The notes beneath the pieces are model-generated. The model was not told where the DNA came from. It was given only the letters and a program-made list of their open reading frames with translations, and made no database searches. The position numbers and the translations under genes were made by a program. This document shows, piece by piece, positions 3,613 to 58,235 of a stretch of DNA of 64,000 nucleotides (within the stretch, counting starts at the first letter, position 1; each line of letters starts with the position of its first letter). The stretch spans positions 18,132 through 82,131 of the forward strand of contig JBAYIQ010000004.1 in NCBI GenBank assembly GCA_041665545.1. Direction: 5' to 3'. Source of the DNA: Patescibacteria group bacterium. GTDB lineage: Bacteria > Patescibacteriota > Patescibacteriia > UBA1558 > GWA2-36-10.

Positions 3613-3919
3613 GTTGGATTGACAAAAATGATTATTTATTTTAGAATTCAAATTGAGGTTAACCATTCCTTCAGGGGATATGGCAATCTCAAAATCGCTT
3701 TTCTTAACAAAGTCCCGCCCATAAAGCGGGGTTTTGTTTTTTATGTAAAATAAATAATCGTAAAAAATGTTATTAATCCAAGTGGATTTAGCAGAAAAAT
3801 TTGTTTTATTGTTAAAAATATAAAACATCGCTTTTCTTTACCTTGTTTATAGCCGTCTATAAAAACAATGACGGCTTACCATGCCGTCATATTATCACCC
3901 GTTATTTTATTGTCAAGAC

Positions 3920-4522
3920 CTAGCCCAAATATCTTCCCAAAAAACTACGCCGATGCAGCGGACACAAGCCGTGCTCTTTTATTAATCGTAAATGTTCCTT
4001 GGTGCCATAGCCCTTATGTTGATAAAAATTATAAGCTGGAAACTCTTTGTGCCAATCTGTCATTAATTTGTCGCGATATACTTTGGCAATAATTGAGGCG
4101 GCGGCAATTTCTTCATGTCTGCTTTCACCGTGCTGGAAAAATTCAAGCTTAGTGTCGGGCCAATATTTTTTGGCCGCGCCCACATAGTCAGCCACCATGT
4201 TTATTTCTCCATGATTGATGTTAATAATTTTTTTTAATAAATCATTAAGCGCTTCTTGCATGACCAAAATATTAGCCACTTGGATACCGCGTTGATCAAT
4301 AATTTGATTATCAATTATTTTGATGCTAAACAAAAAATTTTCAACTATCAATTCGCTCAAAGCTTCTCTTTTTTTCTGAGACAACAATTTGGAATCACGA
4401 ACTTGTTTTAAAATATTTTTTTGCTCCTCCGAGCCCATAGAAAAAACTGCCGCGCCCACAATTGGCCCAGCCACTGGTCCTCTACCCACTTCGTCAATGC
4501 CAATTTTATATTTACTGATCAT
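3920..4522 (-). CDS. rnhB: Ribonuclease HII
   Basis: N-terminal MISKYKIGIDEVGRGPVAGPIVGAAV is the classic RNase HII catalytic motif (GIDEVGRGP). Confidence 0.9.
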   Translation of the reverse strand: MISKYKIGIDEVGRGPVAGPIVGAAVFSMGSEEQKNILKQVRDSKLLSQKKREALSELIVENFLFSIKIIDNQIIDQRGIQVANILVMQEALNDLLKKIININHGEINMVADYVGAAKKYWPDTKLEFFQHGESRHEEIAAASIIAKVYRDKLMTDWHKEFPAYNFYQHKGYGTKEHLRLIKEHGLCPLHRRSFLGRYLG

Positions 4523-7922: not shown

Positions 7923-8183
7923 ATGGCAGACCGTAAGGGTCCTTCGGCTGTAAGCTCGGTCTTCATCTGGCTGGCGTATTTGTCGGCAATTGCCGGCGAA
8001 TCCCTTCTTCTCTGCAAGACTTGGTGGGAGTTTGCGGCGCTTGTGGGCATTGGCGTCGCTGTTTTCTTCCTCGTCGCGTTCTTCATTGGCCTATTTAGCA
8101 TCAAGCGCCACGGCGCCGTCCATGTCCTGCTGATAGCAGTACTCGTGCTTTCGGCAATGACTCACCTGGCCATCTTCGCGTGA
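7923..8183 (+). CDS. Small high-GC membrane protein (two predicted TM helices), unknown function
   Basis: An 86 aa ORF with its own consensus promoter, Shine-Dalgarno and terminator. It has two hydrophobic segments (VSSVFIWLAYLSAIAG, VGIGVAVFFLVAFFIGLF...VLLIAVLVLSAM). GC is well above the flanking DNA. Confidence 0.5.
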   Translation: MADRKGPSAVSSVFIWLAYLSAIAGESLLLCKTWWEFAALVGIGVAVFFLVAFFIGLFSIKRHGAVHVLLIAVLVLSAMTHLAIFA

Positions 8184-8651: not shown

Positions 8652-9242
8652 ATGGCTCGTCAGAAGAGTGAGTTCGTGAGTGCCCTGGGCACGGCCTTCG
8701 AGATGATCAAGCTGATCGCCGAGGAGGTCTACTTCCTGGGTGGTAACGACAACAACATGCGGACGATCCTCAAGGATCGCAAGCTGCGTCAGCAGATCGC
8801 CAAGTTGTTGGTCGCCAACACCGGTGATGTCTGCGCGTTGGACATCTTCGGCAAGAGCATCGATGAGCTGGTAAGGCAGGGTAACTACGACTGGGCCAAC
8901 AACAGCATCAACGACCACAACTTCAAGGCGGACGAGATGCACCAGACCGAAGTCTTTCTCAAGCACTTCGGCCAGAACATGAGTATGGAGGCCGTGCTCA
9001 ATGCTCTGGATGCCGACGGCCTGCGTCCGGCGACCATGTCCGAGCTGCTCGGGTTCGGCATTCGCTATCCCGAACTGCAGCGGCAGTTCCCCATCGTGGC
9101 CCTCGGCTCTGTCTTGCAGTTTACCGGTGGTGGACGTCGTGCCGGTTGCCTCTACGGCAGTGCTGACGAGCGCAGGCTCGGTCTGAACTGGGTCGACGGT
9201 GACTTGAGCGGTGCCTATCGCGTCGCTGCTGTTCGCAAGTAA
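8652..9242 (+). CDS. High-GC hypothetical cytoplasmic protein (197 aa), unknown function
   Basis: ORF track 8589..9242; the start is set at MARQKSEF, directly after a strong Shine-Dalgarno. There is no TM segment and I recognise no motifs. The clearly elevated GC gives the codon usage of a high-GC organism. Confidence 0.5.
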   Translation: MARQKSEFVSALGTAFEMIKLIAEEVYFLGGNDNNMRTILKDRKLRQQIAKLLVANTGDVCALDIFGKSIDELVRQGNYDWANNSINDHNFKADEMHQTEVFLKHFGQNMSMEAVLNALDADGLRPATMSELLGFGIRYPELQRQFPIVALGSVLQFTGGGRRAGCLYGSADERRLGLNWVDGDLSGAYRVAAVRK

Positions 9243-12541: not shown

Positions 12542-12682
12542 TTAGAGACTTATTTTCTTTCGGCCCCTGGCTTTTCGTCTTTTCAAGACTTTTCGACCAT
12601 CTTTGGTGGCCATGCGCTTCATAAAGCCGTGCTTTCTGGCTCTTTTTCTTTTTTTTGGTTGGTATGTCCTTTTTGTTGCCAT
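12542..12682 (-). CDS. rpmH: 50S ribosomal protein L34
   Basis: A 46 aa ORF missed by the 60 aa track cutoff: [46 protein letters not shown], near-consensus L34. It is immediately upstream of rnpA. Confidence 0.85.
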
Positions 12683-12841
12683 ATAAAATTAAATTACCTA
12701 AATAAAATAACATATTTACTTAATTTAATCAAGGGGAGTCACCAACTTGATTATACCCACATTTTATTAACAATTTATGCACTCTCGGTCTTATTTGAGC
12801 ATTTAAAAATATGTGGTATATTTACTGCAGTTTGTAAAAAC

Positions 12842-14212
12842 ATGGATAATTACGAAAAAATTTGGCAAAGTGTCCTGGGTCAACTGGAGTTATTGATCAG
12901 TAGGGCTAATTTTACCACCTGGTTCAAAAATACCTTTTTGGCCGAGTTTGATAACCAGCAAGTTGTGGTTGGGGTACCCAATTCCTTTACCAAGGTTTGG
13001 TTAGAAAAGAAGTATCACGATCACATTACTAAGGCCCTGGAAGACACCTTATCAAAAAGTAATCTACAAGTTATCTACAGGGTGGAAAATAGGGAAAGTT
13101 TAGCTAATATTAGCAAAAATGTTGAGATTGTTGACAAGCCAAGCGAGGAGCTTGTGCACAACCAAAGCCCACAGCCAAAGGCAAGTAATAAGTATGGTTT
13201 AAACCAAAATTATACCTTTAATTCCTTTGTTGTTGGCCCAGGCAATGAGCTGGCCCAGGCAGCAGCTATGGCCGCAGCCCAAAAACCCGGCGAAATGTAT
13301 AACCCTTTGTTTATATACGGGGGTGTGGGTTTGGGCAAAACCCATCTAGCCCAGGCCGTTGGTAACTATATTTTGGCTAAAAATCCACAAAAAAAGGTCC
13401 TTTATATCAATAGCGAAAAATTCACTAATGACTTTATTTTTGCTATAAAAAGGGGCCAAACAGATGAATTTAAGAACATTTATCGCAATGTGGATGTCTT
13501 ATTGATAGATGATATTCAGTTTATTGCTGGAAAAGAGCAGACCCAAGAGGAGTTTTTTCACACCTTCAACGCTCTACACCAAAATAACAAGCAAATTGTG
13601 CTTTCTTCTGATCGACCACCCAAAGCGCTGGGTGGGGTGGAAAATCGTTTGATTTCCCGTTTTGAGTGGGGCATGATTGCTGATATTTCTTTTCCTGACT
13701 TAGAAACCAGGGTGGCTATTTTGGAAATAAAATGCCAACAAAAAAATTATCATTTAGAAAAAGCCCTAGTACAACTGGTGGCCGAAAGTATTCAAGAAAA
13801 TATCCGCGAGCTAGAAGGAGCACTAAACAGGATTATTGCTTTTCATCAACTGAACAATACGCGACCTTCTTTGGAAAGTGTGCGCTCACTTTTGGGTGGC
13901 ATTTCCGCCAATCCAAAAAAAGCCGGACTAACTACTAAAAAATTATTAAAAACTGTTATTGAATTTTTTGATATTAGTATGGATGAGTTGCTTGGTGCCA
14001 GTCGCAAAAAAGAATTGGTCATGCCGCGACAAATTGCCATGTACTTGATGCGCGAACAACTAAAATCATCCTTCCCAAACATTGGACACGAAATTGGTAG
14101 TCGCGATCACACCACAGCCATGCATGCTTGTGTGAAAATATCTGAATTAGTAGCGACTGATGAACGCGTAAAAAATGATATTGCTGTACTCAAACAAAAG
14201 CTCTATGAATAA
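12842..14212 (+). CDS. dnaA: Chromosomal replication initiator protein DnaA
   Basis: ORF track 12629..14212; the start is set at MDNYEKIWQ, because the upstream part overlaps rpmH. AAA+ Walker A GVGLGKTHLAQA, sensor motifs, and a C-terminal DNA-binding domain (IAMYLMREQLKSSFPNIGHEIGSRDHTTAMHACVKI). Confidence 0.9.
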   Translation: MDNYEKIWQSVLGQLELLISRANFTTWFKNTFLAEFDNQQVVVGVPNSFTKVWLEKKYHDHITKALEDTLSKSNLQVIYRVENRESLANISKNVEIVDKPSEELVHNQSPQPKASNKYGLNQNYTFNSFVVGPGNELAQAAAMAAAQKPGEMYNPLFIYGGVGLGKTHLAQAVGNYILAKNPQKKVLYINSEKFTNDFIFAIKRGQTDEFKNIYRNVDVLLIDDIQFIAGKEQTQEEFFHTFNALHQNNKQIVLSSDRPPKALGGVENRLISRFEWGMIADISFPDLETRVAILEIKCQQKNYHLEKALVQLVAESIQENIRELEGALNRIIAFHQLNNTRPSLESVRSLLGGISANPKKAGLTTKKLLKTVIEFFDISMDELLGASRKKELVMPRQIAMYLMREQLKSSFPNIGHEIGSRDHTTAMHACVKISELVATDERVKNDIAVLKQKLYE

Positions 14213-14445
14213 ACTGTTGACTAGTTGGTGGGCGCTTGTGTAAATCTCCTGGAAAATAATTTTTTTTAAAAGACAAGATTAAAATCGCGACTTTCTGCAC
14301 AGAGTTATCAGGTGGTCGTGCACAAGACAAATAGATAAATAAACACAAAATCACTGAACAAATACTTTATACAGCTCAAACTTATCAACATATGCACCGC
14401 GCCTACTACGGCTATATAATATATATATAAATTAATAATAAGTAT

Positions 14446-15552
14446 ATGAAAATTATTTGCACGCAAGAAAATTTAAATTACGGATTGGGATTAGTTTCAC
14501 ATATCGCCAATAAAAACAGTAATTTGCCCATATTAAACAATGTTTTGATTAAAGCGGAGAAAGAGGGCATTACTCTAATAACCACTGATCTAGAAATCGG
14601 CGTAAAGGTTTTTGTGCGTAGCAAAGTAGAGGAGGAAGGCGCCTTTACCGTGGATGCTAAACTGTTAAATAGTTTTATTAATTTATTACCAAAAGAAAAC
14701 ATTACCCTGACCTTGGGCGAGGATAATAGTTTGGAAGTGAAAAGTAAAAATCAAGACACGGCCATTCGCGGCATGGAAGCCGAAGACTTTCCACTCATAC
14801 CAGAAATTTCTAAAGACAATGAAATTGAAGTGTCGTCTTTGGATCTCAAAAAAAGCTTGAGCCAAGTAATATTTGCCGCTTCACTGGACAACACTAGAAT
14901 AGAAATAAACGCGGTCAATTTTAATTTCAAGGGAGAGCAATTAACCTTGGCCGCCACTGATAGTTATCGTCTAGCCGAAAAGAAAATAAAAATTGCCAAC
15001 CAAAGTAAAGAAAGCAATTTAATAATCCCCCTAAAAACCCTACAAGAATTATTGCGCATTTTAAATGAAAATTCTGAAAAAAATCTAAAAATATATTTTA
15101 ACGAAAATCAAATAATGTTTTCACTGGATGGTGTGGAGCTAGTCTCCAGAGTAATTGACGGCAACTATCCAGACTACAAGCAAATTATTCCCGACAAATT
15201 TAATACCAACATCAAGTGCGATGCTGATAAATTATTGCCAGCCATCAAAGCAGTTTCTCTTTTTTGTAAGCAGGGGATTAACGACATTAGGGTAAGCTTC
15301 GACAACGCTACCAATGAAATTGTTATTACCACCGCCTCATCGCACGCTGGAAAAAGTCTGGCCAAGGTGCCAGCCGAAATAAGCGGAGAAAACAACGACA
15401 TTGTTTTCAATTATCGTTATATTATAGACGGATTAAACAATATTGATCAAAAAGAGGTGTTTATTAATATAAACAACAACACTTCGCCGGGATTGATAGG
15501 GCCAGTGGGCCATGACGACTATATTTACCTGGTTATGCCGATTAGACAATAG
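14446..15552 (+). CDS. dnaN: DNA polymerase III beta subunit (sliding clamp)
   Basis: N-terminal MKIICTQENLNYGLGLVSHIANKNSNLPILNNVLIKAEKEGITLITTDLEIG is the typical DnaN domain I. It follows dnaA. Confidence 0.85.
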   Translation: MKIICTQENLNYGLGLVSHIANKNSNLPILNNVLIKAEKEGITLITTDLEIGVKVFVRSKVEEEGAFTVDAKLLNSFINLLPKENITLTLGEDNSLEVKSKNQDTAIRGMEAEDFPLIPEISKDNEIEVSSLDLKKSLSQVIFAASLDNTRIEINAVNFNFKGEQLTLAATDSYRLAEKKIKIANQSKESNLIIPLKTLQELLRILNENSEKNLKIYFNENQIMFSLDGVELVSRVIDGNYPDYKQIIPDKFNTNIKCDADKLLPAIKAVSLFCKQGINDIRVSFDNATNEIVITTASSHAGKSLAKVPAEISGENNDIVFNYRYIIDGLNNIDQKEVFININNNTSPGLIGPVGHDDYIYLVMPIRQ

Positions 15553-15721
15553 CTTGTGGAAATGTTTTTTGGCAAATTATTATAAATTTGCTATAATATA
15601 TTGACACTCGAAAATACCTGCGTCGAACAGGGATTTGTCGGGCGCTATAGAGATATGTAATTTCAGAAATGAAGCAAGAAACATCCGTGCGCGATCTAGG
15701 GTGTTTTTTGTTTTATATAAA

Positions 15722-15756
15722 TGAAACCCGCCCACAGAACCGTAGTTCTGGGGCGG
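15722..15756 (-). terminator. Rho-independent terminator of the 15778..16248 gene
   Basis: ACCCGCCCACAGAAC-CGTA-GTTCTGGGGCGGGT hairpin. On the minus strand it is followed by TTTCATTTATATAAAACAAAA (T-rich). Confidence 0.55.
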
Positions 15757-15777
15757 GTGAGGGGTGGAAGTGGGGTC

Positions 15778-16248
15778 CTACTTCTTGGGCTTGATCTTGG
15801 CCAGGCTGGCGGTCTTGAAGCGCCCGAAGGCGCGCTTGACCTGGCGCTTGTAGTCCAGGCCATAGTGGACGGCCAACCACTGTCCCTGAAGCGCGAGCAC
15901 TTCGGGGTCGAGATGGAATTTCTTCCAATCCCTGAGAAGGTGGGCGGTCATGGCCGGCTTGATCCGAGTCACGCGGCGTCGGTTCTTGCTAGCGTCAGGC
16001 TTGACGCGGGCCAGCCGTTTGCGCAGCTTGCCCTGCCTGGAATGCAAGCCGCGAACCTCTTGTCGCAGACGAGAGCGCTGGGCGGATTGACGTCTGTTGG
16101 CCAACTCCAGGCGCGAGATCCTGGCCTGAGACGCTGCCAAACCGGCGGCCAGGTCTTTGAGCGCTTTGTCCACACGGCGCTCGAAGCGGGTCTGTGCTGC
16201 TGCTGTTGAGCGACGCAACGCTGGTAAGGATTGTTTTCGACGGGTCAC
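15778..16248 (-). CDS. High-GC basic coiled-coil-like hypothetical protein (156 aa), GTG start
   Basis: A strong Shine-Dalgarno (AAGGAGGA) lies 7 nt upstream of the GTG, with its own terminator and its own TTGACA-17-TATAAA promoter. GC is about 60%. The protein is very basic (RRKQSLPALRRS...RRQSAQRSRLRQEVRGLHSRQGKLRKRLARVKP). Confidence 0.5.
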   Translation of the reverse strand: MTRRKQSLPALRRSTAAAQTRFERRVDKALKDLAAGLAASQARISRLELANRRQSAQRSRLRQEVRGLHSRQGKLRKRLARVKPDASKNRRRVTRIKPAMTAHLLRDWKKFHLDPEVLALQGQWLAVHYGLDYKRQVKRAFGRFKTASLAKIKPKK

Positions 16249-16301
16249 GTAAGGTCCTCCTTGTGTTTGGGCGGAACAGCGGCTGAATTGCCGAACACTA
16301 T

Positions 16302-16330
16302 TTTATACACCATAATCACATTTTTGTCAA
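16302..16330 (-). promoter_or_regulatory. Near-consensus sigma70 promoter (TTGACA-17-TATAAA) for the 15778..16248 gene
   Basis: Minus-strand reading TTGACAAAAATGTGATTATGGTGTATAAA. Confidence 0.5.
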
Positions 16331-16372
16331 CAGTAAATTGCCCAGATATTTTAAATTTGTTATTATAAGGGC

Positions 16373-16939
16373 ATGATAGCTTATCTGAAGGGTAGTGTAT
16401 TAAAAAAAGACCAAAAAGCCACCATTATAAACGTTAATGGCGTTGGCTATGAGGTTTTTTTGAAAAATAAGGACATTGCCAATCTCCAAATCAACGAATT
16501 TGTGGAGTTTTTCATTCATTCTTATATAAAAGAAGACGCCTTAGACCTATACGGCTTTGTTAATCCAGAAGAATTAGCTTTTTTCAAGCAACTACTTCAG
16601 GTGTCTGGTGTTGGCCCAAGGACGGCCATGAGCGTCATGTCTTTGGCTGAAGTGTTGGATTTGAAGAGGGCCATTACCAGTGGCAATCCCAGCTTCTTAC
16701 AACAAGTCTCTGGTATTGGCAAAAAAACAGCCGAGCGCCTGGTGGTGGAGCTGAAGGAAAAATTTATTGATGAGGTGTCGGCCGACGGTGCTCTTATCAA
16801 CACGGACCAGCAAGTAATATCGGCCCTAGTCTCCTTGGGCTACAAAGAGCGCGAGGTCATGGACATGACCAGGGGCCTGGAACTAGAAGGCGATTTGTCA
16901 GACAAAATAAAACAAGTTTTAAAAAATACCAAAAAATAA
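16373..16939 (+). CDS. ruvA: Holliday junction DNA helicase RuvA
   Basis: MIAYLKGSVLKKDQKATIINVNGVGYEVFL (domain I), followed by the helix-hairpin-helix motifs LLQVSGVGPRTAMSVMS and VSGIGKKTAERLVVEL. Confidence 0.85.
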   Translation: MIAYLKGSVLKKDQKATIINVNGVGYEVFLKNKDIANLQINEFVEFFIHSYIKEDALDLYGFVNPEELAFFKQLLQVSGVGPRTAMSVMSLAEVLDLKRAITSGNPSFLQQVSGIGKKTAERLVVELKEKFIDEVSADGALINTDQQVISALVSLGYKEREVMDMTRGLELEGDLSDKIKQVLKNTKK

Positions 16940-36978: not shown

Positions 36979-37667
36979 AATACTTTAAAATAATAATTTT
37001 AGTAGCCGTTACTTTGCCCTTGCTAGCTTTTGCCCAAACAACACCACCAGGGTTTTTGGACACCTTGGGGGGAGATTGTATGAAAAACGGCGACTGTCAA
37101 CTAGCCGACGTAGCCACTGGTTTTATTTTGTTGACCAAGTTACTGCTCGGGGCTATGGGAGCCGTGGCTTTGCTGTATTTTGTAATTGGTGGCTTCCAGT
37201 GGATGACTTCCCAAGGCAACCAGGAAAGAGTGCGTAAGGGCCAGCAGACCATGACCAACACTGTTATTGCTTTGTGTATTGCCTTTACTAGTTATTTACT
37301 ATTGAACTTTTTTGTTAATGATATTTTGGGAGTAAAAAGTGATTACATGATTGGCGATGCTCCAACTCAGTGTGAAGGTAAGTCAGATGGGACGGCTTGT
37401 AATGTGGTTGCTGGTAGCACATATATAAACCCCTATGAATGTTTTTCGGGAGAGTGCGTCACTAAGTGTAAAGTAAAAGCCAACATGACCAGTTTGAATT
37501 GGCAGTGCTATACTGTGCCAAATCCAGAATTAATATCAACAGACACTACTTATTATGAAAGAAATTTGTGCCCCGGTGATGAATACACTGTTTGCACCTT
37601 GTTAAATGCCAGTGGAGAACCAGCTGATCCAGCTTATCAAGCGTTCCTACATCGTTTTGTTCCTTGA
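36975..37667 (+). CDS. TrbC/VirB2-like T4SS-pilin-family paralog 1, with Cys-rich C-terminal extension
   Basis: Signal peptide, then the conserved core GAMGAVALLYFVIGGFQWMTSQGNQERVRKGQQTMTNTVIALCIAFTSYLLLNFF (two TM helices around a GGFxWxTSxGN loop). A roughly 110 aa tail carries 10 Cys (QCEGKSDGTACN...ECFSGECVTKCK...WQCY...NLCPGDEYTVCTLL). Confidence 0.55.
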   Translation: MKYFKIIILVAVTLPLLAFAQTTPPGFLDTLGGDCMKNGDCQLADVATGFILLTKLLLGAMGAVALLYFVIGGFQWMTSQGNQERVRKGQQTMTNTVIALCIAFTSYLLLNFFVNDILGVKSDYMIGDAPTQCEGKSDGTACNVVAGSTYINPYECFSGECVTKCKVKANMTSLNWQCYTVPNPELISTDTTYYERNLCPGDEYTVCTLLNASGEPADPAYQAFLHRFVP

Positions 37668-37785
37668 TTATAAAATTATGCACATTCACTCCGTTAAATA
37701 AAATTTAAACACAGTTTAAATTTTAAATTTGCTACATGACCACATATAAATTATACGCCAATGAAAAATATAAAAAATAAATCTG

Positions 37786-37866
37786 TCATTGCGAGTCCCG
37801 TCGAGCTGAGCTCGACGGGATGTGGCAATCCCGATGAGATTGCTTCGCTCCGCTCGCAATGACAAT
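37786..37866. mobile_element. MITE-like palindromic element, family B
   Basis: An 81 bp element with perfect 12 bp terminal inverted repeats TGTCATTGCGAG / CTCGCAATGACA. It contains an 11 bp-stem hairpin TCCCGTCGAGC-TGA-GCTCGACGGGA. A related fragment (CCCCGTCGCG-TCAGA-CGCGACGGGG followed by CTCGCAATGAC) is at 7551-7583. It lies 10 bp upstream of the pilin paralog 2 start. Confidence 0.5.
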
Positions 37867-37875
37867 CATAAATAT

Positions 37876-38205
37876 ATGAAAAAAATAATAAATTTATTTT
37901 GGTTAGCCACTCTTCCTCTATCTGCTTGGTCGGCAACAGACGGGAAAATTGAGCTTGAAAACCCCGTATCAGCAGATAGTGTGCCAGAACTTATCAATAC
38001 TGTAATTAAAGCAATTTTAGGCATAGTCGGCGCCGTAGCTTTGTTGTATTTGGTGTTGGGTGGTTTCACTTGGCTGACTTCCCAAGGCAATCCGGAAAAA
38101 GTAAAAAAAGGCCGAGAGACATTGGTTTGGGCGATCTTTGGTCTAGCTATGATTTTCTTTAGCTACGTGATATTGAATTATGTCTTTACCGAATTTTTAA
38201 AATAA
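37876..38205 (+). CDS. TrbC/VirB2-like T4SS-pilin-family paralog 2
   Basis: ORF track 37822..38205; the true start is MKKIINLF, because the upstream part is the MITE. Signal peptide LATLPLSAWSA, then the core ILGIVGAVALLYLVLGGFTWLTSQGNPEKVKKGRETLVWAIFGLAMIFFSYVILNYVF. Confidence 0.55.
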   Translation: MKKIINLFWLATLPLSAWSATDGKIELENPVSADSVPELINTVIKAILGIVGAVALLYLVLGGFTWLTSQGNPEKVKKGRETLVWAIFGLAMIFFSYVILNYVFTEFLK

Positions 38206-38223
38206 ATATAATTTTTTTGGTTC

Positions 38224-38252
38224 TTGATGTTTTGTGGTTTTTAGACTATAAT
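38224..38252 (+). promoter_or_regulatory. Putative promoter for pilin paralog 3 (TTGATG-17-TATAAT)
   Basis: TTGATGTTTTGTGGTTTTTAGACTATAAT lies about 65 nt upstream of a strong Shine-Dalgarno (AGGGGGTGA) and the ATG at 38317. Confidence 0.4.
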
Positions 38253-38316
38253 ATTATTAGTAAAAAGTACCTTGTTATTAATTATTAAAATCCTAAAAAT
38301 GAAAGGGGGTGAAGAA

Positions 38317-38682
38317 ATGAAAAAATTATTAGTTTCATTAATGCTTTTAGCGCCATCAATGGCCATGGCTCAAGCTCCTGTTGTGGAAGATGACCCATTT
38401 GGTCGAAACACCTTACAAGAGCTTTCAACAGCTGGTGAAAGTAAAGATATATTTGTGGTTATTTCAAACATTGTTAATATTATCTTGACTTTCTTAGGCG
38501 CTATTGCTGTGTTGTTATTCCTTTATGGTGGATTCAAGTGGTTCACCTCTCAAGGTAATAGTGAGCAAATTGAAGCTGCCAAGAAAATCATGGGCGCTGC
38601 CGTTGTTGGCTTGGCCATTATTTTCGCTTCATACGCCGCCGCTCAATACATCTTCGATCAGTTGTCGAATCAACTTTTATAG
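38317..38682 (+). CDS. TrbC/VirB2-like T4SS-pilin-family paralog 3
   Basis: Start MKKLLVSLMLLAPSMAMAQA (signal peptide) after the Shine-Dalgarno. Core LTFLGAIAVLLFLYGGFKWFTSQGNSEQIEAAKKIMGAAVVGLAIIFASYAAAQYIF. Confidence 0.55.
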   Translation: MKKLLVSLMLLAPSMAMAQAPVVEDDPFGRNTLQELSTAGESKDIFVVISNIVNIILTFLGAIAVLLFLYGGFKWFTSQGNSEQIEAAKKIMGAAVVGLAIIFASYAAAQYIFDQLSNQLL

Positions 38683-38756
38683 TGGTATATTTGGATTCAA
38701 GACATATAGTCTAGACTATAGTAGGCAAGCTTTTTGCCTACTAAGGTGTGAATTAT

Positions 38757-39146
38757 ATGTATAAATATATTATTTCATTATTTCTATTGTTGCCCTTTAC
38801 TGTCCTAGCAGTGAATCCTTTGGATTCTTTGAATGAGGCAGCCGGAGGCACTGGCTTGGTGAGTAATAAAACTCCGATTCAGATTGTTACTAGCATCATC
38901 AACACCATCCTTTATTTTGTGGGGGCTATAGTTATTGTCCTGATGCTTTGGGCGGGCTTCAAGTGGATGACTTCAGCTGGCAACACTGAAGCCATCAAAA
39001 AATCTAGAGAAACTATTATCAATGCCGTGATTGGCTTGGTAATTATTTTTGCGTCTTATGTGATAGTCAATTTTGTGATGTTAAGACTTATTGAGGGTAT
39101 TGGTGTTGGTGGCACTGGAGGTTCTCCGGCGACAGTTGCTGATTAA
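38757..39146 (+). CDS. TrbC/VirB2-like T4SS-pilin-family paralog 4, Gly/Thr/Ser/Pro-rich C-terminal tail
   Basis: ORF track 38748 (GTG); the ATG at 38757 has the better Shine-Dalgarno (AAGGTG). Signal peptide ISLFLLLPFTVLA. Core LYFVGAIVIVLMLWAGFKWMTSAGNTEAIKKSRETIINAVIGLVIIFASYVIVNFV. Tail GIGVGGTGGSPATVAD. Confidence 0.55.
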   Translation: MYKYIISLFLLLPFTVLAVNPLDSLNEAAGGTGLVSNKTPIQIVTSIINTILYFVGAIVIVLMLWAGFKWMTSAGNTEAIKKSRETIINAVIGLVIIFASYVIVNFVMLRLIEGIGVGGTGGSPATVAD

Positions 39147-39229: not shown

Positions 39230-39913
39230 TTATAGCCTGATACAGCCACCCCTGTCCAGCAGCATACCCTGATTGTTGTTGGGGATAAAGTCATTGATCA
39301 AGAAGACAGCGTCAACTGACCGACCCTGCCACGGCACCTTGTGTCCGGGCGCAAGATTTCGACAGCCACGGATGACTCGTCCTCTGTCTTCCCAAACCAG
39401 TACGAAGTCGCCAGCTGCGATGAAGATGATTTTCTCTTCGTGGGGACGAAGAGTAAACACCGGCCCTTGTATGTTTTGGAAGGTTTTGGTCTGAGAGCTG
39501 ATGTTTTTTACCACTACCTCTAGCCGCGCCCAGCCTTGCACGAGGAATTCATCAACGATAATTGGCTCGCCAGTGTACAGACCGACTACGTGGTTTTCTT
39601 CCCCGTGTAGCACCTGGTCATTTCCTACCCATGGAGCCGTCCAGATTTCGTAACGTATGTATTTTTGTGCTCTCGTTTCTACAGGGAAGTCCCTTCCGTA
39701 GGGGAGTGGGATCTTGGGTCCACCGTTGACTGACACAACGGCCCAGCCAATGTAGTGCCGTTGGAAGGTCAATGTGACGGTGGGTGGGTTATCGCCGTAG
39801 GGATGATCGAGAGCGCGACCCTGTTCGTCGCGGAACTCGGTGCCGAGGCCCAAGCAGCCACAAAGGGGCAACAGGGCCATCAGGCACAGGGAGATAAGCA
39901 CATAGCGACGCAT
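39230..39913 (-). CDS. High-GC lipoprotein, unknown function
   Basis: ORF track 39230..39925 (GTG); the ATG at 39913 (MRRYVLISLCLMALLPLCGC lipobox-like) is preceded by Shine-Dalgarno GTGAGGTG. GC is about 53%. It has its own exact TTGACA-17-TATAAT promoter. I recognise no domain. Confidence 0.5.
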   Translation of the reverse strand: MRRYVLISLCLMALLPLCGCLGLGTEFRDEQGRALDHPYGDNPPTVTLTFQRHYIGWAVVSVNGGPKIPLPYGRDFPVETRAQKYIRYEIWTAPWVGNDQVLHGEENHVVGLYTGEPIIVDEFLVQGWARLEVVVKNISSQTKTFQNIQGPVFTLRPHEEKIIFIAAGDFVLVWEDRGRVIRGCRNLAPGHKVPWQGRSVDAVFLINDFIPNNNQGMLLDRGGCIRL

Positions 39914-39976
39914 ATAGCACCTCACTTGTTGAATGTTCTTTTTTTAGGCCCAAAATAGGGCTTTTACTAACACTAT

Positions 39977-52221: not shown

Positions 52222-52650
52222 TTATTGGTTAATATTTTGAGCAATAAATTGATAAAGCGCCATTGCAGCGTATTCTGCATAGGTATTGTTGGTGCAACTG
52301 AAGCGATAGTAATCATCGATTGATCGTATAATATTATCGGGAGCAGTAGACCCTATTCTTTTGGTCCGCTCTAAAATATAATTAAGCTTTTCAATGATTT
52401 TTTCTATAGTCGTGCCAGAGTCTTTTTCTTTTTGTAATTCAGCAGTAACTTCTTGAATAATGTTTAGATATTTTTGGTAAATTGGTTTTAAATGTTTTTC
52501 TATTAGCAAGTCTTTTTCACTCGCCTGAATCCACCCGATATCTAGAGCATAAGTAAGGCATTCTTCGTAATATGTATTTTCATCCAGGATTTTTCCCCTG
52601 TCTTCATTTTGTATTTCTGGCCATTGTCCTGGTAATCTTGTTTTTTCCAT
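52222..52650 (-). CDS. Hypothetical cytoplasmic protein (142 aa)
   Basis: The ORF is preceded by a 104 bp sequence identical to the one upstream of the 52745..53308 gene. I recognise no motifs. Confidence 0.4.
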   Translation of the reverse strand: MEKTRLPGQWPEIQNEDRGKILDENTYYEECLTYALDIGWIQASEKDLLIEKHLKPIYQKYLNIIQEVTAELQKEKDSGTTIEKIIEKLNYILERTKRIGSTAPDNIIRSIDDYYRFSCTNNTYAEYAAMALYQFIAQNINQ

Positions 52651-52745
52651 ATTTTATTATTTCACTTTTCCAAATTTCCTTTTTCCAGCTTGCACCACAT
52701 CGCCGGATTTGATGATGATATCTTTGTCCCAAGCTGATATTTTTT
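52642..52745. repeat. 104 bp perfect direct repeat, copy 1 (contains a duplicated fragment of the tyrS 3' end)
   Basis: Identical to 53300-53403. It comprises the last ~29 codons of tyrS (...SGDVVQAGKRKFGKVK*), plus the intergenic ATAAAAT and a start codon. Confidence 0.8.
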
Positions 52746-53308
52746 TATATTACCATTGCTATCCCCATAGCCATTAGAGTATTCCACCATATATATAAAT
52801 AAGCAAATCCTATTTCAGGATGCAATTCCTTATATTCTAAAAAATCATTAATAGTACTTGTATAGATGGGGTTCTGTAGAGGGGTTGTGTTATATTCAGC
52901 TAGTAGCCACACAAAAGCAATTACCCCAGCCAATAAAGATAAAAATATTATACTGTTTTTTGAAATTTTGGTTATAGATCCTAAGCCAATAAGCATAATC
53001 AATCCACCCACAAAACCAGCTACTAGGAAAGAAAAAGGTGGTTTTATAATAGCTTCAGCTATGACCACCCAAAAAGATGCATGATAAGCAATAGCGCAAC
53101 AGGCGAGCCATATTAAGGTATTCTCAGGATTCTTTTTTTCTTTTTTAATAATAAATATGGCCGGAAATATAAAAATCCCAAAAATTAATCCTGGCAATAG
53201 AGATAAGGCATAAAAGTTATGGGTAACATCAAAGAGCAGAATATAGTTAACTACTAGTGCGGACATAAGGCCAAACAGTGGCAAAATAATAAATTTTAAT
53301 TTTTCCAT
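52745..53308 (-). CDS. Hypothetical polytopic membrane protein (187 aa, about 6 TM)
   Basis: The gene is flanked by the two copies of the 104 bp direct repeat. It has a hydrophobic profile throughout. Confidence 0.45.
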   Translation of the reverse strand: MEKLKFIILPLFGLMSALVVNYILLFDVTHNFYALSLLPGLIFGIFIFPAIFIIKKEKKNPENTLIWLACCAIAYHASFWVVIAEAIIKPPFSFLVAGFVGGLIMLIGLGSITKISKNSIIFLSLLAGVIAFVWLLAEYNTTPLQNPIYTSTINDFLEYKELHPEIGFAYLYIWWNTLMAMGIAMVI

Positions 53309-53403
53309 ATTTTATTATTTCACTTTTCCAAATTTCCTTTTTCCAGCTTGCACCACATCGCCGGATTTGATGATGATATCTTTGTCCCAAGCTGATATTT
53401 TTT
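53300..53403. repeat. 104 bp perfect direct repeat, copy 2 (authentic tyrS 3' end plus downstream start region)
   Basis: Identical to 52642-52745. Confidence 0.8.
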
Positions 53404-57738: not shown

Positions 57739-58235
57739 ATGTTGGATTTGACTCGGCCCCGCACTTCGGATGAGGTCTATGTTTCTGGCGCATTGACCAA
57801 TGCCAAGTTGAAAGGAGGAGTCGATCCCAGGGAGCTTTATAAGCTGATCGGCGATCTCTGTCGGCGTAAGGGTCTCAATCCCTACGTACCGCATTTGCAC
57901 ACCGATCCGGTCTTGCACAAGGACATTCATCCCACGTACGTCTACGAAATGGACCATCAGAAGGTGCTGGATGCCTGCCTGCTCATTGCCTATGTGGGCC
58001 AGGCCAGTGGTGTGTTGGTATGGAGATGGAGATGGCCAGAGCCAATTTCACCCCGATCATCGTGCTGTACGAGGCCGATGTTCCGGTCACCAACATCTCA
58101 CGCATGTATCGGGGAAATCGGGCTGTGAAGGCAGTGGTCCGCTTCATGGACATGGATGACGCTTTGGCTAAGCTGGAGCTGGCCATTGAAGTGGTGCTGG
58201 CAAGGTGGGTTCGGTCTCAACCGCTGATCTTCTAG
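57739..58235 (+). pseudogene. High-GC nucleoside 2-deoxyribosyltransferase-family gene, interrupted by a -1 frameshift
   Basis: Two overlapping ORFs in different frames (57739..58128 and 58020..58235) together reconstitute an NDT-like protein. The N-terminus is VYVSGALTN, the catalytic region is ...YVGQASGV(L)GMEMEMARANFTPIIVLYEAD (compare GLGMELGYA...VLLVIPDED), and the frames join at GGTGTGTTGGTATGGAGATGG. GC is about 55-60%. Confidence 0.55.

Follow-up and report, generated by a model that had tools for sequence, protein, structure and literature searches.

Several described systems resemble parts of a locus carried by a 64,000-nucleotide stretch of DNA (hereafter the window) from an uncultivated bacterium of the Patescibacteria, or candidate phyla radiation (CPR). 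The locus lies between dnaN and ruvA and holds a small gene, here called X, whose very basic protein of 156 amino acids (aa) is predicted to join a long helix to a compact three-helix domain, together with a candidate small RNA (sRNA) next to dnaN. In fold, the three-helix domain recalls the eukaryotic homeodomain (PF00046; CRX 9b8u, Engrailed 1du0, and Pdx1 2h1k), from which X differs in being bacterial, in having a presumed coiled coil fused at its N terminus, in not conserving Asn51 and Arg53, and in scoring below the Pfam threshold by sequence. The Listeria motility gene repressor MogR (PDB 3fdq) has its head at the N terminus and its coiled coil at the C terminus. This order is reversed in X, no sequence similarity between the two was detected, and MogR is larger (about 300 aa) and comes from Firmicutes. 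Plant HD-Zip proteins (PDF2 HDZIP, 9lpe) and the OrfA/TnpE proteins of IS3-type insertion sequences (IS; 2rn7), both of which are among the fold matches, likewise pair a helix-turn-helix (HTH) with a leucine-zipper-type helix. In these proteins the zipper is C-terminal to the HTH, the opposite of the order predicted for X, and unlike an IS3-type OrfA, X has neither a transposase partner open reading frame (ORF) nor inverted repeats here.

Further comparisons concern RNA and base composition. Some sRNAs at mRNA 3′ ends, such as those of the enterobacterial DapZ/MicL type, have their own promoter and share the terminator of the mRNA. The candidate described here likewise has a promoter just after the upstream stop codon, and its terminator would be shared with dnaN, but it comes from Patescibacteria and matches no Rfam family. 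Genomic islets of atypical composition are commonly described by an amelioration model. X shares with such islets an atypical codon usage and content of guanine plus cytosine at third codon positions (GC3), as well as a net flux from GC to AT at synonymous sites. It differs from them because it is syntenic and co-diverging with core genes, has no donor or mobility genes, and keeps its GC excess across saturated divergence, and because an unrelated family shows the same pattern.

Comparison of related sequences indicates that X is a protein-coding gene under selection, and that it is a vertically inherited, long-resident gene restricted to its lineage. Its product appears, on balance, to represent a small new family that combines a coiled coil, a basic arm, and a homeodomain-like three-helix domain, and that probably binds DNA.

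A self-contained coding gene of atypical composition

In 200-nucleotide (nt) intervals, GC content is 58-65% across about positions 15700-16300 and 30-45% on either side. The original prediction of a GC-rich block with a single gene at this site was accurate, as the block spans approximately 570 bp at 62% GC; the window as a whole is 39.7% GC. The ORF starts with GTG, and lysine and arginine make up 28% of its residues. The strong Shine-Dalgarno (SD) sequence, the promoter, and the hairpin terminator that had been described for it are all present (Table 1), and X is a single self-contained transcription unit whose protein is predicted to have the anticipated long helix of coiled-coil type.

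The -35 element of X (TTGACA) is located at 16325-16330 and the -10 element (TATAAA) at 16302-16307, with a spacer of 17 nt and a leader of about 47 nt. The same TTGACA-17-TATAAA arrangement accompanies the X homolog of a more distant genome, L088, and a TTGACA box is present in L092. Promoter-like sites are frequent in the surrounding 1.1-kb region, where 8 were found versus 1.3 expected from shuffled sequences. In relatives, the terminator has a different stem whose arms are equally complementary as a result of compensatory changes, followed by T8. The 124 bp between X and ruvA are about 95% conserved in five genomes whose synonymous sites differ at 29-52%, and an nhmmer model of these 124 positions gave high-scoring matches covering at least 121 positions in all relatives. 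Such strong conservation fits a control region shared by the two genes.

The foreign-looking composition attributed to X is likewise real. Its GC3 is 0.745, compared to 0.37-0.49 in the dnaA, dnaN, ruvA, femAB, NTP-transferase, and Mur ligase genes. Encoding the same amino acids with codons at the frequencies of 18 native genes gave expected values of 49% GC and a GC3 of 0.43, versus the observed 62% and 0.74. Thus, amino acid content explains less than half of the GC excess.

Insertions and deletions among the aligned relatives measure 12, 3, 3, and 6 nt inside the ORF, and 5, 2, and 1 nt outside of it. The ratio of nonsynonymous to synonymous divergence (dN/dS) lies at 0.17-0.52 for the whole gene, and the N-terminal half has values of 0.10-0.26. 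In the X frame, GC content follows the order GC3>GC1>GC2 that is expected for coding DNA. Because the internal length changes all preserve the reading frame, dN/dS stays under 1, the frame has a coding pattern, and the product belongs to a protein family, X is judged to code for a protein, and these same observations rule out the possibility that the GC block is a structured noncoding RNA. An Rfam search of the block gave no match, and the predicted structure of the X mRNA does not exceed that of shuffled sequences (fold z-score of -0.43). A plus-strand ORF of 162 aa (15721-16209) was also considered as a true gene and rejected, as it is interrupted in L003 and L006.

Long residence and a persistent GC excess

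Five X homologs were found among 5.8 billion proteins, and all five close relatives carry the gene at the dnaN/ruvA site. The gene order dnaA-dnaN-X-ruvA-femAB is identical in L001 (NCBI GCA_964540095.1) and L003, whereas the contigs L004 to L007 are shorter, with X adjoining ruvA in each and dnaN also visible in L006 and L007. Every close homolog is divergent from ruvA-femAB, and dnaN is located on the opposite side wherever the contig reaches that far (L001, L003, L006, and L007). For X, synonymous divergence (dS) of the relatives from the window amounts to 0.60-0.87, and the relatives differ from each other by 0.39-0.66; the corresponding values for ruvA are 0.69-0.90 and 0.36-0.56. Because the two genes have similar dS, X appears to have diverged together with its neighbors.

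A profile search (HMMER) of 1.84 billion cluster representatives recovered only ten proteins of the X family. One of these, P0007, is 28% identical to X and is divergent from ruvA-femAB-NTP transferase-Mur ligase-rpoB in L088, a genome of 32% GC. Relative to the window, protein identity in L088 is 56% for RuvA, 70% for DnaN, and 51% for FemAB, and three extra genes separate the X homolog from dnaN. No X homolog was found near ruvA in 80 more distant genomes, for which flanks of up to 5 kb per side were covered. A scan of GTDB species representatives with RuvA revealed none closer than 46% identity, so no close relative that lacks the block was found. Taken together, the shared site, the matching dS, and a distant homolog that also lies beside ruvA argue that X is an old resident rather than a recent insertion.

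The original prediction had implied an inserted cassette. A recent foreign cassette placed between two core genes would explain why the compositional boundaries are sharp, why X carries its own promoter, SD, and terminator, and why a 30-nt direct repeat (77% identical) is present at 15569-15598 and 16338-16367. The two copies of this repeat, however, are promoter sequences, and L088 lacks the repetition. X, for its part, occurs in all of the relatives and matches ruvA in dS. Furthermore, mobility functions were not found: beside the block there is no integrase or other mobility gene, no tRNA, and no true flanking repeat, and no repeats of mobile elements or diversity-generating retroelements (DGRs) involve it. 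A recent insertion is therefore largely refuted, and we regard it as exceedingly improbable. Native composition in relatives had been proposed as a test of this idea, and the result is split, because the block is indeed present in relatives but its composition is non-native in every one. A phage origin was also rejected, given that PHROGs provided only weak coiled-coil matches for X and a fold search of BFVD gave no match with E<0.6.

Two X sequences are unusual in themselves. When compared to the L007 allele (1036-1512), the L003 allele (3754-4200) is mosaic, with an N-terminal part resembling that of the window and a C-terminal half resembling that of L007. The dS between L003 and L007 is 0.16 in the C-terminal half and 0.71 in the N-terminal half, and this mosaic points to intragenic recombination between lineages. 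The other sequence, P0011, is a frameshifted copy of 87 aa from another metagenome.

GC richness above that of the host is a trait of the whole X family. Each homolog is richer in GC than its host genome, and each has an SD. GC3 is 0.68-0.76 in the window clade (genomic value of approximately 0.40), 0.48 in L088 (approximately 0.21), 0.69 in L092 (approximately 0.40), and 0.83 in L093 (approximately 0.44). The excess persists even over distances, such as that to L088, at which synonymous sites must be saturated. Among polarized synonymous singletons, 12 changes from GC to AT and 3 from AT to GC were counted in X (15 sites, a small sample), versus 17 and 9 in ruvA. By this count the GC content of X is currently falling, which is the behavior expected of a xenolog undergoing amelioration.

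Thus, X might have been acquired horizontally from a GC-rich donor or a mobile pool absent from current sampling, have entered the gap before these genomes diverged, and still be drifting toward the composition of its host. Besides the direction of synonymous change, this origin would account for the departure of GC3 from native codon usage, for an SD and a 47-nt leader that native genes do not share, and for the other GC-rich ORFs scattered in the window. The supporting flux counts are small, however, and no homolog from a GC-rich organism, phage, or plasmid family was found among 1.8-5.8 billion proteins. There is also no integrase, tRNA junction, or flanking repeat at the site. Moreover, the locus is already occupied in L088, where saturation of synonymous sites means that amelioration should be complete, and yet GC3 is still 0.48 versus 0.21. 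We consider acquisition of this kind to be possible but rather doubtful, and it would be compatible with a DNA-binding function. Neither simple recent transfer, nor mRNA structure, nor an overlapping gene accounts for all of the GC pattern.

Additional GC-rich ORFs are present in the window. One at 8652-9242 on the plus strand (57% GC, GC3 of 0.75) belongs to an unrelated hypothetical family that is known only from Patescibacteria. Its Nomurabacteria homolog (L115, 4001-4588) has a GC3 of 0.755 in a 38%-GC genome and adjoins a DGR-like cluster of bAvd, reverse transcriptase, and integrase genes, whereas no reverse transcriptase was seen near the window ORF. Further GC-rich ORFs with GC3 values of 0.61-0.74 are located at 2152-2904 and 39230-39925 on the minus strand and at 57739-58235 and 7923-8183 on the plus strand. 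One of these is Peptidase_C39_2-like with a lipoprotein-like N terminus, and the others match no family.

Predicted fold and possible function of X

The AlphaFold2 (AF2) model of full-length X has a predicted local distance difference test (pLDDT) score of 83.6, and the isolated C-terminal domain scores 82.7. The long helix (residues 8-82) reaches pLDDT values of 92-96 over residues 21-70, the basic linker is poorly ordered, and the helices of the domain comprise residues 98-111, 115-129, and 133-152. In the family alignment, the N-terminal helical half is variable and the C-terminal block is conserved, with the consensus RKRxRHVxHRIxxAEKAHLLxxWxxxRHDxxALxREGRxLAKRYxLDYxRQVxRWFxRF. The ten proteins have RHVxHRISxxEKAHLLxxWxxxRHDxxALxREGRxLAKRYxLDYxRQVxRWF in common. 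A Foldseek search with the full-length model returned almost only homeodomains and IS-encoded TnpE, at non-significant E-values, and the fold matches are DNA-binding domains. Like a homeodomain, the X model folds into three helices that include an HTH and a long recognition helix, and a basic arm precedes helix 1 (RKRxRHVxHRI in the family, NRRRVTRIK in the window). When the family was aligned by hhalign with eight homeodomain sequences, the three helices were in register with P = 3.8e-4 and a probability of 36%, and the aligned positions were L16, F20/W, L34-A35, V45, and W48-F49.

Direct sequence searches were less informative. Nothing scored above threshold in Pfam, NCBIfam, PHROGs, or PDB sequence searches with X, which yielded only coiled-coil noise. 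The Pfam Homeodomain model matched one of the ten family members at E=0.011, which is below its gathering threshold, and did not match the window protein. YabA was rejected because it gave only a sub-threshold coiled-coil match (E 0.0057-0.17), and X lacks the C-terminal Zn-binding domain specific to that family. An SMC ATPase was rejected as well, given scores of 12-13 bits versus cut-offs of more than 560 and a length of 156 aa that leaves no room for an ATPase domain. Coiled-coil matches of the SMC type probably lie behind a JGI label of 'chromosome segregation ATPase'.

If these models are correct, the N-terminal helix of about 75 residues would form a coiled-coil dimer or oligomer that holds at least two DNA-binding heads together. 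By analogy with homeodomains and MogR, helix 3 would make the major-groove contacts, with the basic arm lying in the minor groove next to it. Such a protein would serve one of two purposes, namely local regulation through the highly conserved X/ruvA control region or a nucleoid-type role at high abundance. A near-consensus promoter and a strong SD, in a genome that is nearly devoid of SDs, suggest that expression of X is handled separately.

Certain observations must be set against this proposal. The structure predictions rest on shallow alignments of 5 and 10 sequences, and both DNA binding and coiled-coil dimerization are suggested by predicted structure and genomic context. Of the homeodomain signature W48, F49, N51, and R53, the last two residues are not conserved, and the family has F, L, I, or R at the position of N51. 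Helix 3 contains W-F in distant members (RWF) and A-F in the window clade, equivalent to a change of Trp48 to Ala, and the turn that connects helices 2 and 3 has one extra residue relative to a homeodomain. The DNA-binding domain is most divergent in the window allele, with dN/dS values of 0.57-0.87 relative to the relatives and with substitutions of RHD to HLD and LAKRY to LAVHY, which may reflect relaxed constraint or altered specificity. In addition, no repeated operator motif was identified in the X/ruvA control region. The domain is thus homeodomain-like in its predicted fold, and homology to the homeodomain is unproven. A literature search for bacterial homeodomains found nothing. More speculatively, the X family may be a genuine bacterial relative of the homeodomain, nearer to it than common bacterial HTH domains are, fused to a coiled coil in a few Patescibacteria lineages, and together with at least the family of the 8652-9242 ORF may form a hidden class of GC-rich genes led by SDs within AT-rich genomes that are mostly leaderless and lack SDs, although we consider this to be an improbable proposition.

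A different role can be imagined from the adjacent candidate sRNA. X is very basic and helical, and in the window clade it is convergent with the sRNA candidate at a distance of about 10 nt, as might be expected if it were an Arg-rich, elongated RNA-binding protein or chaperone, similar in spirit to FinO/ProQ, that partners with this RNA. However, X matches no ProQ/FinO, Hfq, or other RNA-binding family, and its fold matches are DNA-binding domains. Moreover, the sRNA-like unit of L088 stays with dnaN while X lies 2 kb away behind three genes, and L092 and L093 hold X homologs without such an RNA. An RNA-binding role is therefore very unlikely, and DNA binding remains the preferred reading.

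Candidate small RNA, the ruvA start, and biological meaning

Table 1. Positions of features at the dnaN-X-ruvA locus, numbered within the window
Feature	Coordinates	Strand	Basis
Candidate sRNA promoter, TTGGCA-17-TGcTATAAT	15569..15597	+	11/12 consensus, extended -10
Candidate sRNA of ~112 nt, or dnaN 3′ untranslated region (UTR)	15604..15716	+	97% conservation, fold, promoter and terminator
Intrinsic terminator: core ACAUCC, loop with UGCGCGAU, GGGUGU, U-run	15681..15716	+	Predicted fold
X terminator hairpin, stem CCCGCCCACAGAAC/GUUCUGGGGCGGG	15727..15757	-	GC-rich, after stop codon
Gene X, basic protein	15778..16248	-	ORF, indel pattern, dN/dS, GC3>GC1>GC2, homologs
Three-helix homeodomain-like domain, residues 98-152, presumed DNA-binding	15793..15957	-	AF2
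Basic linker or 'arm', residues 83-97, KPDASKNRRRVTRIK	15958..16002	-	Alignments; low pLDDT
Single long helix, residues 8-82, presumed coiled-coil oligomerization	16003..16227	-	AF2, weak coiled-coil matches, dN/dS 0.10-0.26
X/ruvA divergent control region	16249..16372		About 95% conserved alignment
X Shine-Dalgarno AAGGAGG, 7 nt before GTG	16256..16262	-	Read from sequence; SD in all homologs
X promoter TTGACA-17-TATAAA	16302..16330	-	Read from sequence; invariant in 5 genomes
ruvA promoter TTGCCC-17-TGtTATTAT, ATG 6 nt on	16338..16375	+	Predicted sites

The original prediction also described a possible sRNA downstream from dnaN. Its plus-strand promoter and its end in a U-run, here about 112 nt further on, were upheld, with the correction that the promoter spacer is 17 nt and not 18. 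As is typical for an sRNA, a promoter of its own and an intrinsic terminator bound a short noncoding stretch, in which neither a conserved ORF nor an Rfam match was found. Over the 123 nt at 15598-15720, mean column identity is 97% in the five genomes, whose ruvA synonymous sites differ at 29-52%. The predicted fold (z = -2.7) has three hairpins, namely one at the 5′ end (15605-15644), a small one (15650-15664), and that of the terminator (15669-15716), whose stem has 18 bp, and the RNA would end in GGGTGTTTTTTGTTTT. Variable columns are confined to the 5′ hairpin, one position of the terminator stem, the first five positions, and the tail past the U-run. Substitutions fall in loops or keep pairs (U-A/U-G/C-G at one pair and G-U/A-U at two), and the G-U pairs favor transcription of the plus strand.

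A related unit is found in L088 and in L102, a genome of the same lineage. There, a nearly identical promoter directly after dnaN, TTGCCA-17-TGcTATAAT, in which the core AATTTGCTATAATAT is unchanged, would drive a 65-nt version that has a different 5′ hairpin and the same terminator hairpin and loop UGCGCGAU. The motif is not present in L092 or L093, both of which have X homologs. Because the unit recurs after dnaN in L088 and not in L092 or L093, it appears to be linked to dnaN and not to X. A metagenome scan for the 3′ motif yielded L102 as its one true homolog, along with 20 chance matches. An RNAduplex search for targets produced long duplexes that were uninterpretable, and no complement of the conserved loop was found near start codons.

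An sRNA, or an RNA derived from the dnaN 3′ UTR, is a credible and probably the most likely interpretation of this conservation. It is also conceivable, though we lean against it, that 15553-15716 is no stand-alone sRNA but the terminator of dnaN together with conserved DNA elements, for example a site that resembles a promoter and is bound by a protein. At 130-165 nt past the dnaN stop codon, the hairpin and U-run would terminate dnaN transcripts and may belong to dnaN only. Furthermore, only the promoter and terminator, and not the body, are shared with L088, there is no match to Rfam, and covariation is not significant, given that just one base pair has substitutions in both partners and that 199 of 500 shuffles reach the observed score. 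A terminator with DNA signals accounts less readily for the body of the candidate, where the 75 nt that separate the 5′ hairpin from the terminator have a single variable column in five genomes, and for a promoter with an extended -10 that retains 11 of 12 consensus positions across family-level divergence. Likewise, substitutions that are located in loops or preserve pairs on the plus strand, G-U pairs included, favor an RNA.

On the other side of X, the ruvA ATG is located at 16373, 6 nt after TATTAT (16361-16366), and there is no SD, an arrangement typical of leaderless genes, in which a -10 element is positioned approximately 6-8 nt before the start. The leaderless start that had been suggested for ruvA is therefore plausible, but it is not special to this gene. 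The L088 ruvA has TGcTAAGAT, 7 nt, and then ATG despite sequence divergence, and dnaN and two further genes have the 6-nt spacing as well. In the window as a whole, -10-like hexamers occur 17 times at offsets of 5-13 nt before starts versus 11 times over offsets of 14-44 nt, and most genes have no SD, whereas the GC-rich ORFs tend to carry SD-like motifs. This clustering suggests leaderless or very short-leader mRNAs throughout the window, of which ruvA is probably one case and not a peculiarity of the locus. Example genes start at 14446, 16373, 31936, and 41955. A literature search on leaderless translation in Patescibacteria found nothing.

Other features of the window are separate from these subjects. 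Cumulative GC skew has its minimum at about 7.2-9.6 kb, upstream of rnpA/yidC/dnaA/dnaN (12629-15552), and for this reason the replication origin is probably close by. The conserved flanks of X were considered as an oriC or DnaA-box cluster and rejected, as consensus DnaA boxes do not cluster next to X. At 37158-38984, four tandem paralogous small genes form a small multigene family and share a conserved segment of 30-92 nt. A 112-nt direct repeat (97% identical) at 52634-52745 and 53292-53403, which looks like a recent tandem duplication, gives the minus-strand genes at 52222-52650 and 52745-53308 identical upstream regions.

The mechanistic class to which this locus would belong is a familiar one, and the aspects most worth following are the GC excess of orphan genes led by SDs and the resemblance of a bacterial domain to the homeodomain. 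There are lessons to be learned from the former, in that a GC island need not mean recent horizontal transfer, because here the excess travels with the family through long vertical descent. Its occurrence in two unrelated families points to selection on codons or DNA, or to recurrent exchange with an unseen pool. Should a GC-rich, SD-led class exist, it would imply a separate regime of expression or maintenance for those genes. The RNA next to dnaN, if it is a true sRNA, would join a very short list of conserved sRNAs that have been proposed in Patescibacteria. The genomes of these organisms are tiny and have few recognizable regulators, which makes X, a conserved and presumably strongly expressed protein encoded next to replication and repair genes, a candidate for a lineage-specific regulator or chromosome-organizing protein, and one that adds a bacterial data point on the origin of the homeodomain fold.

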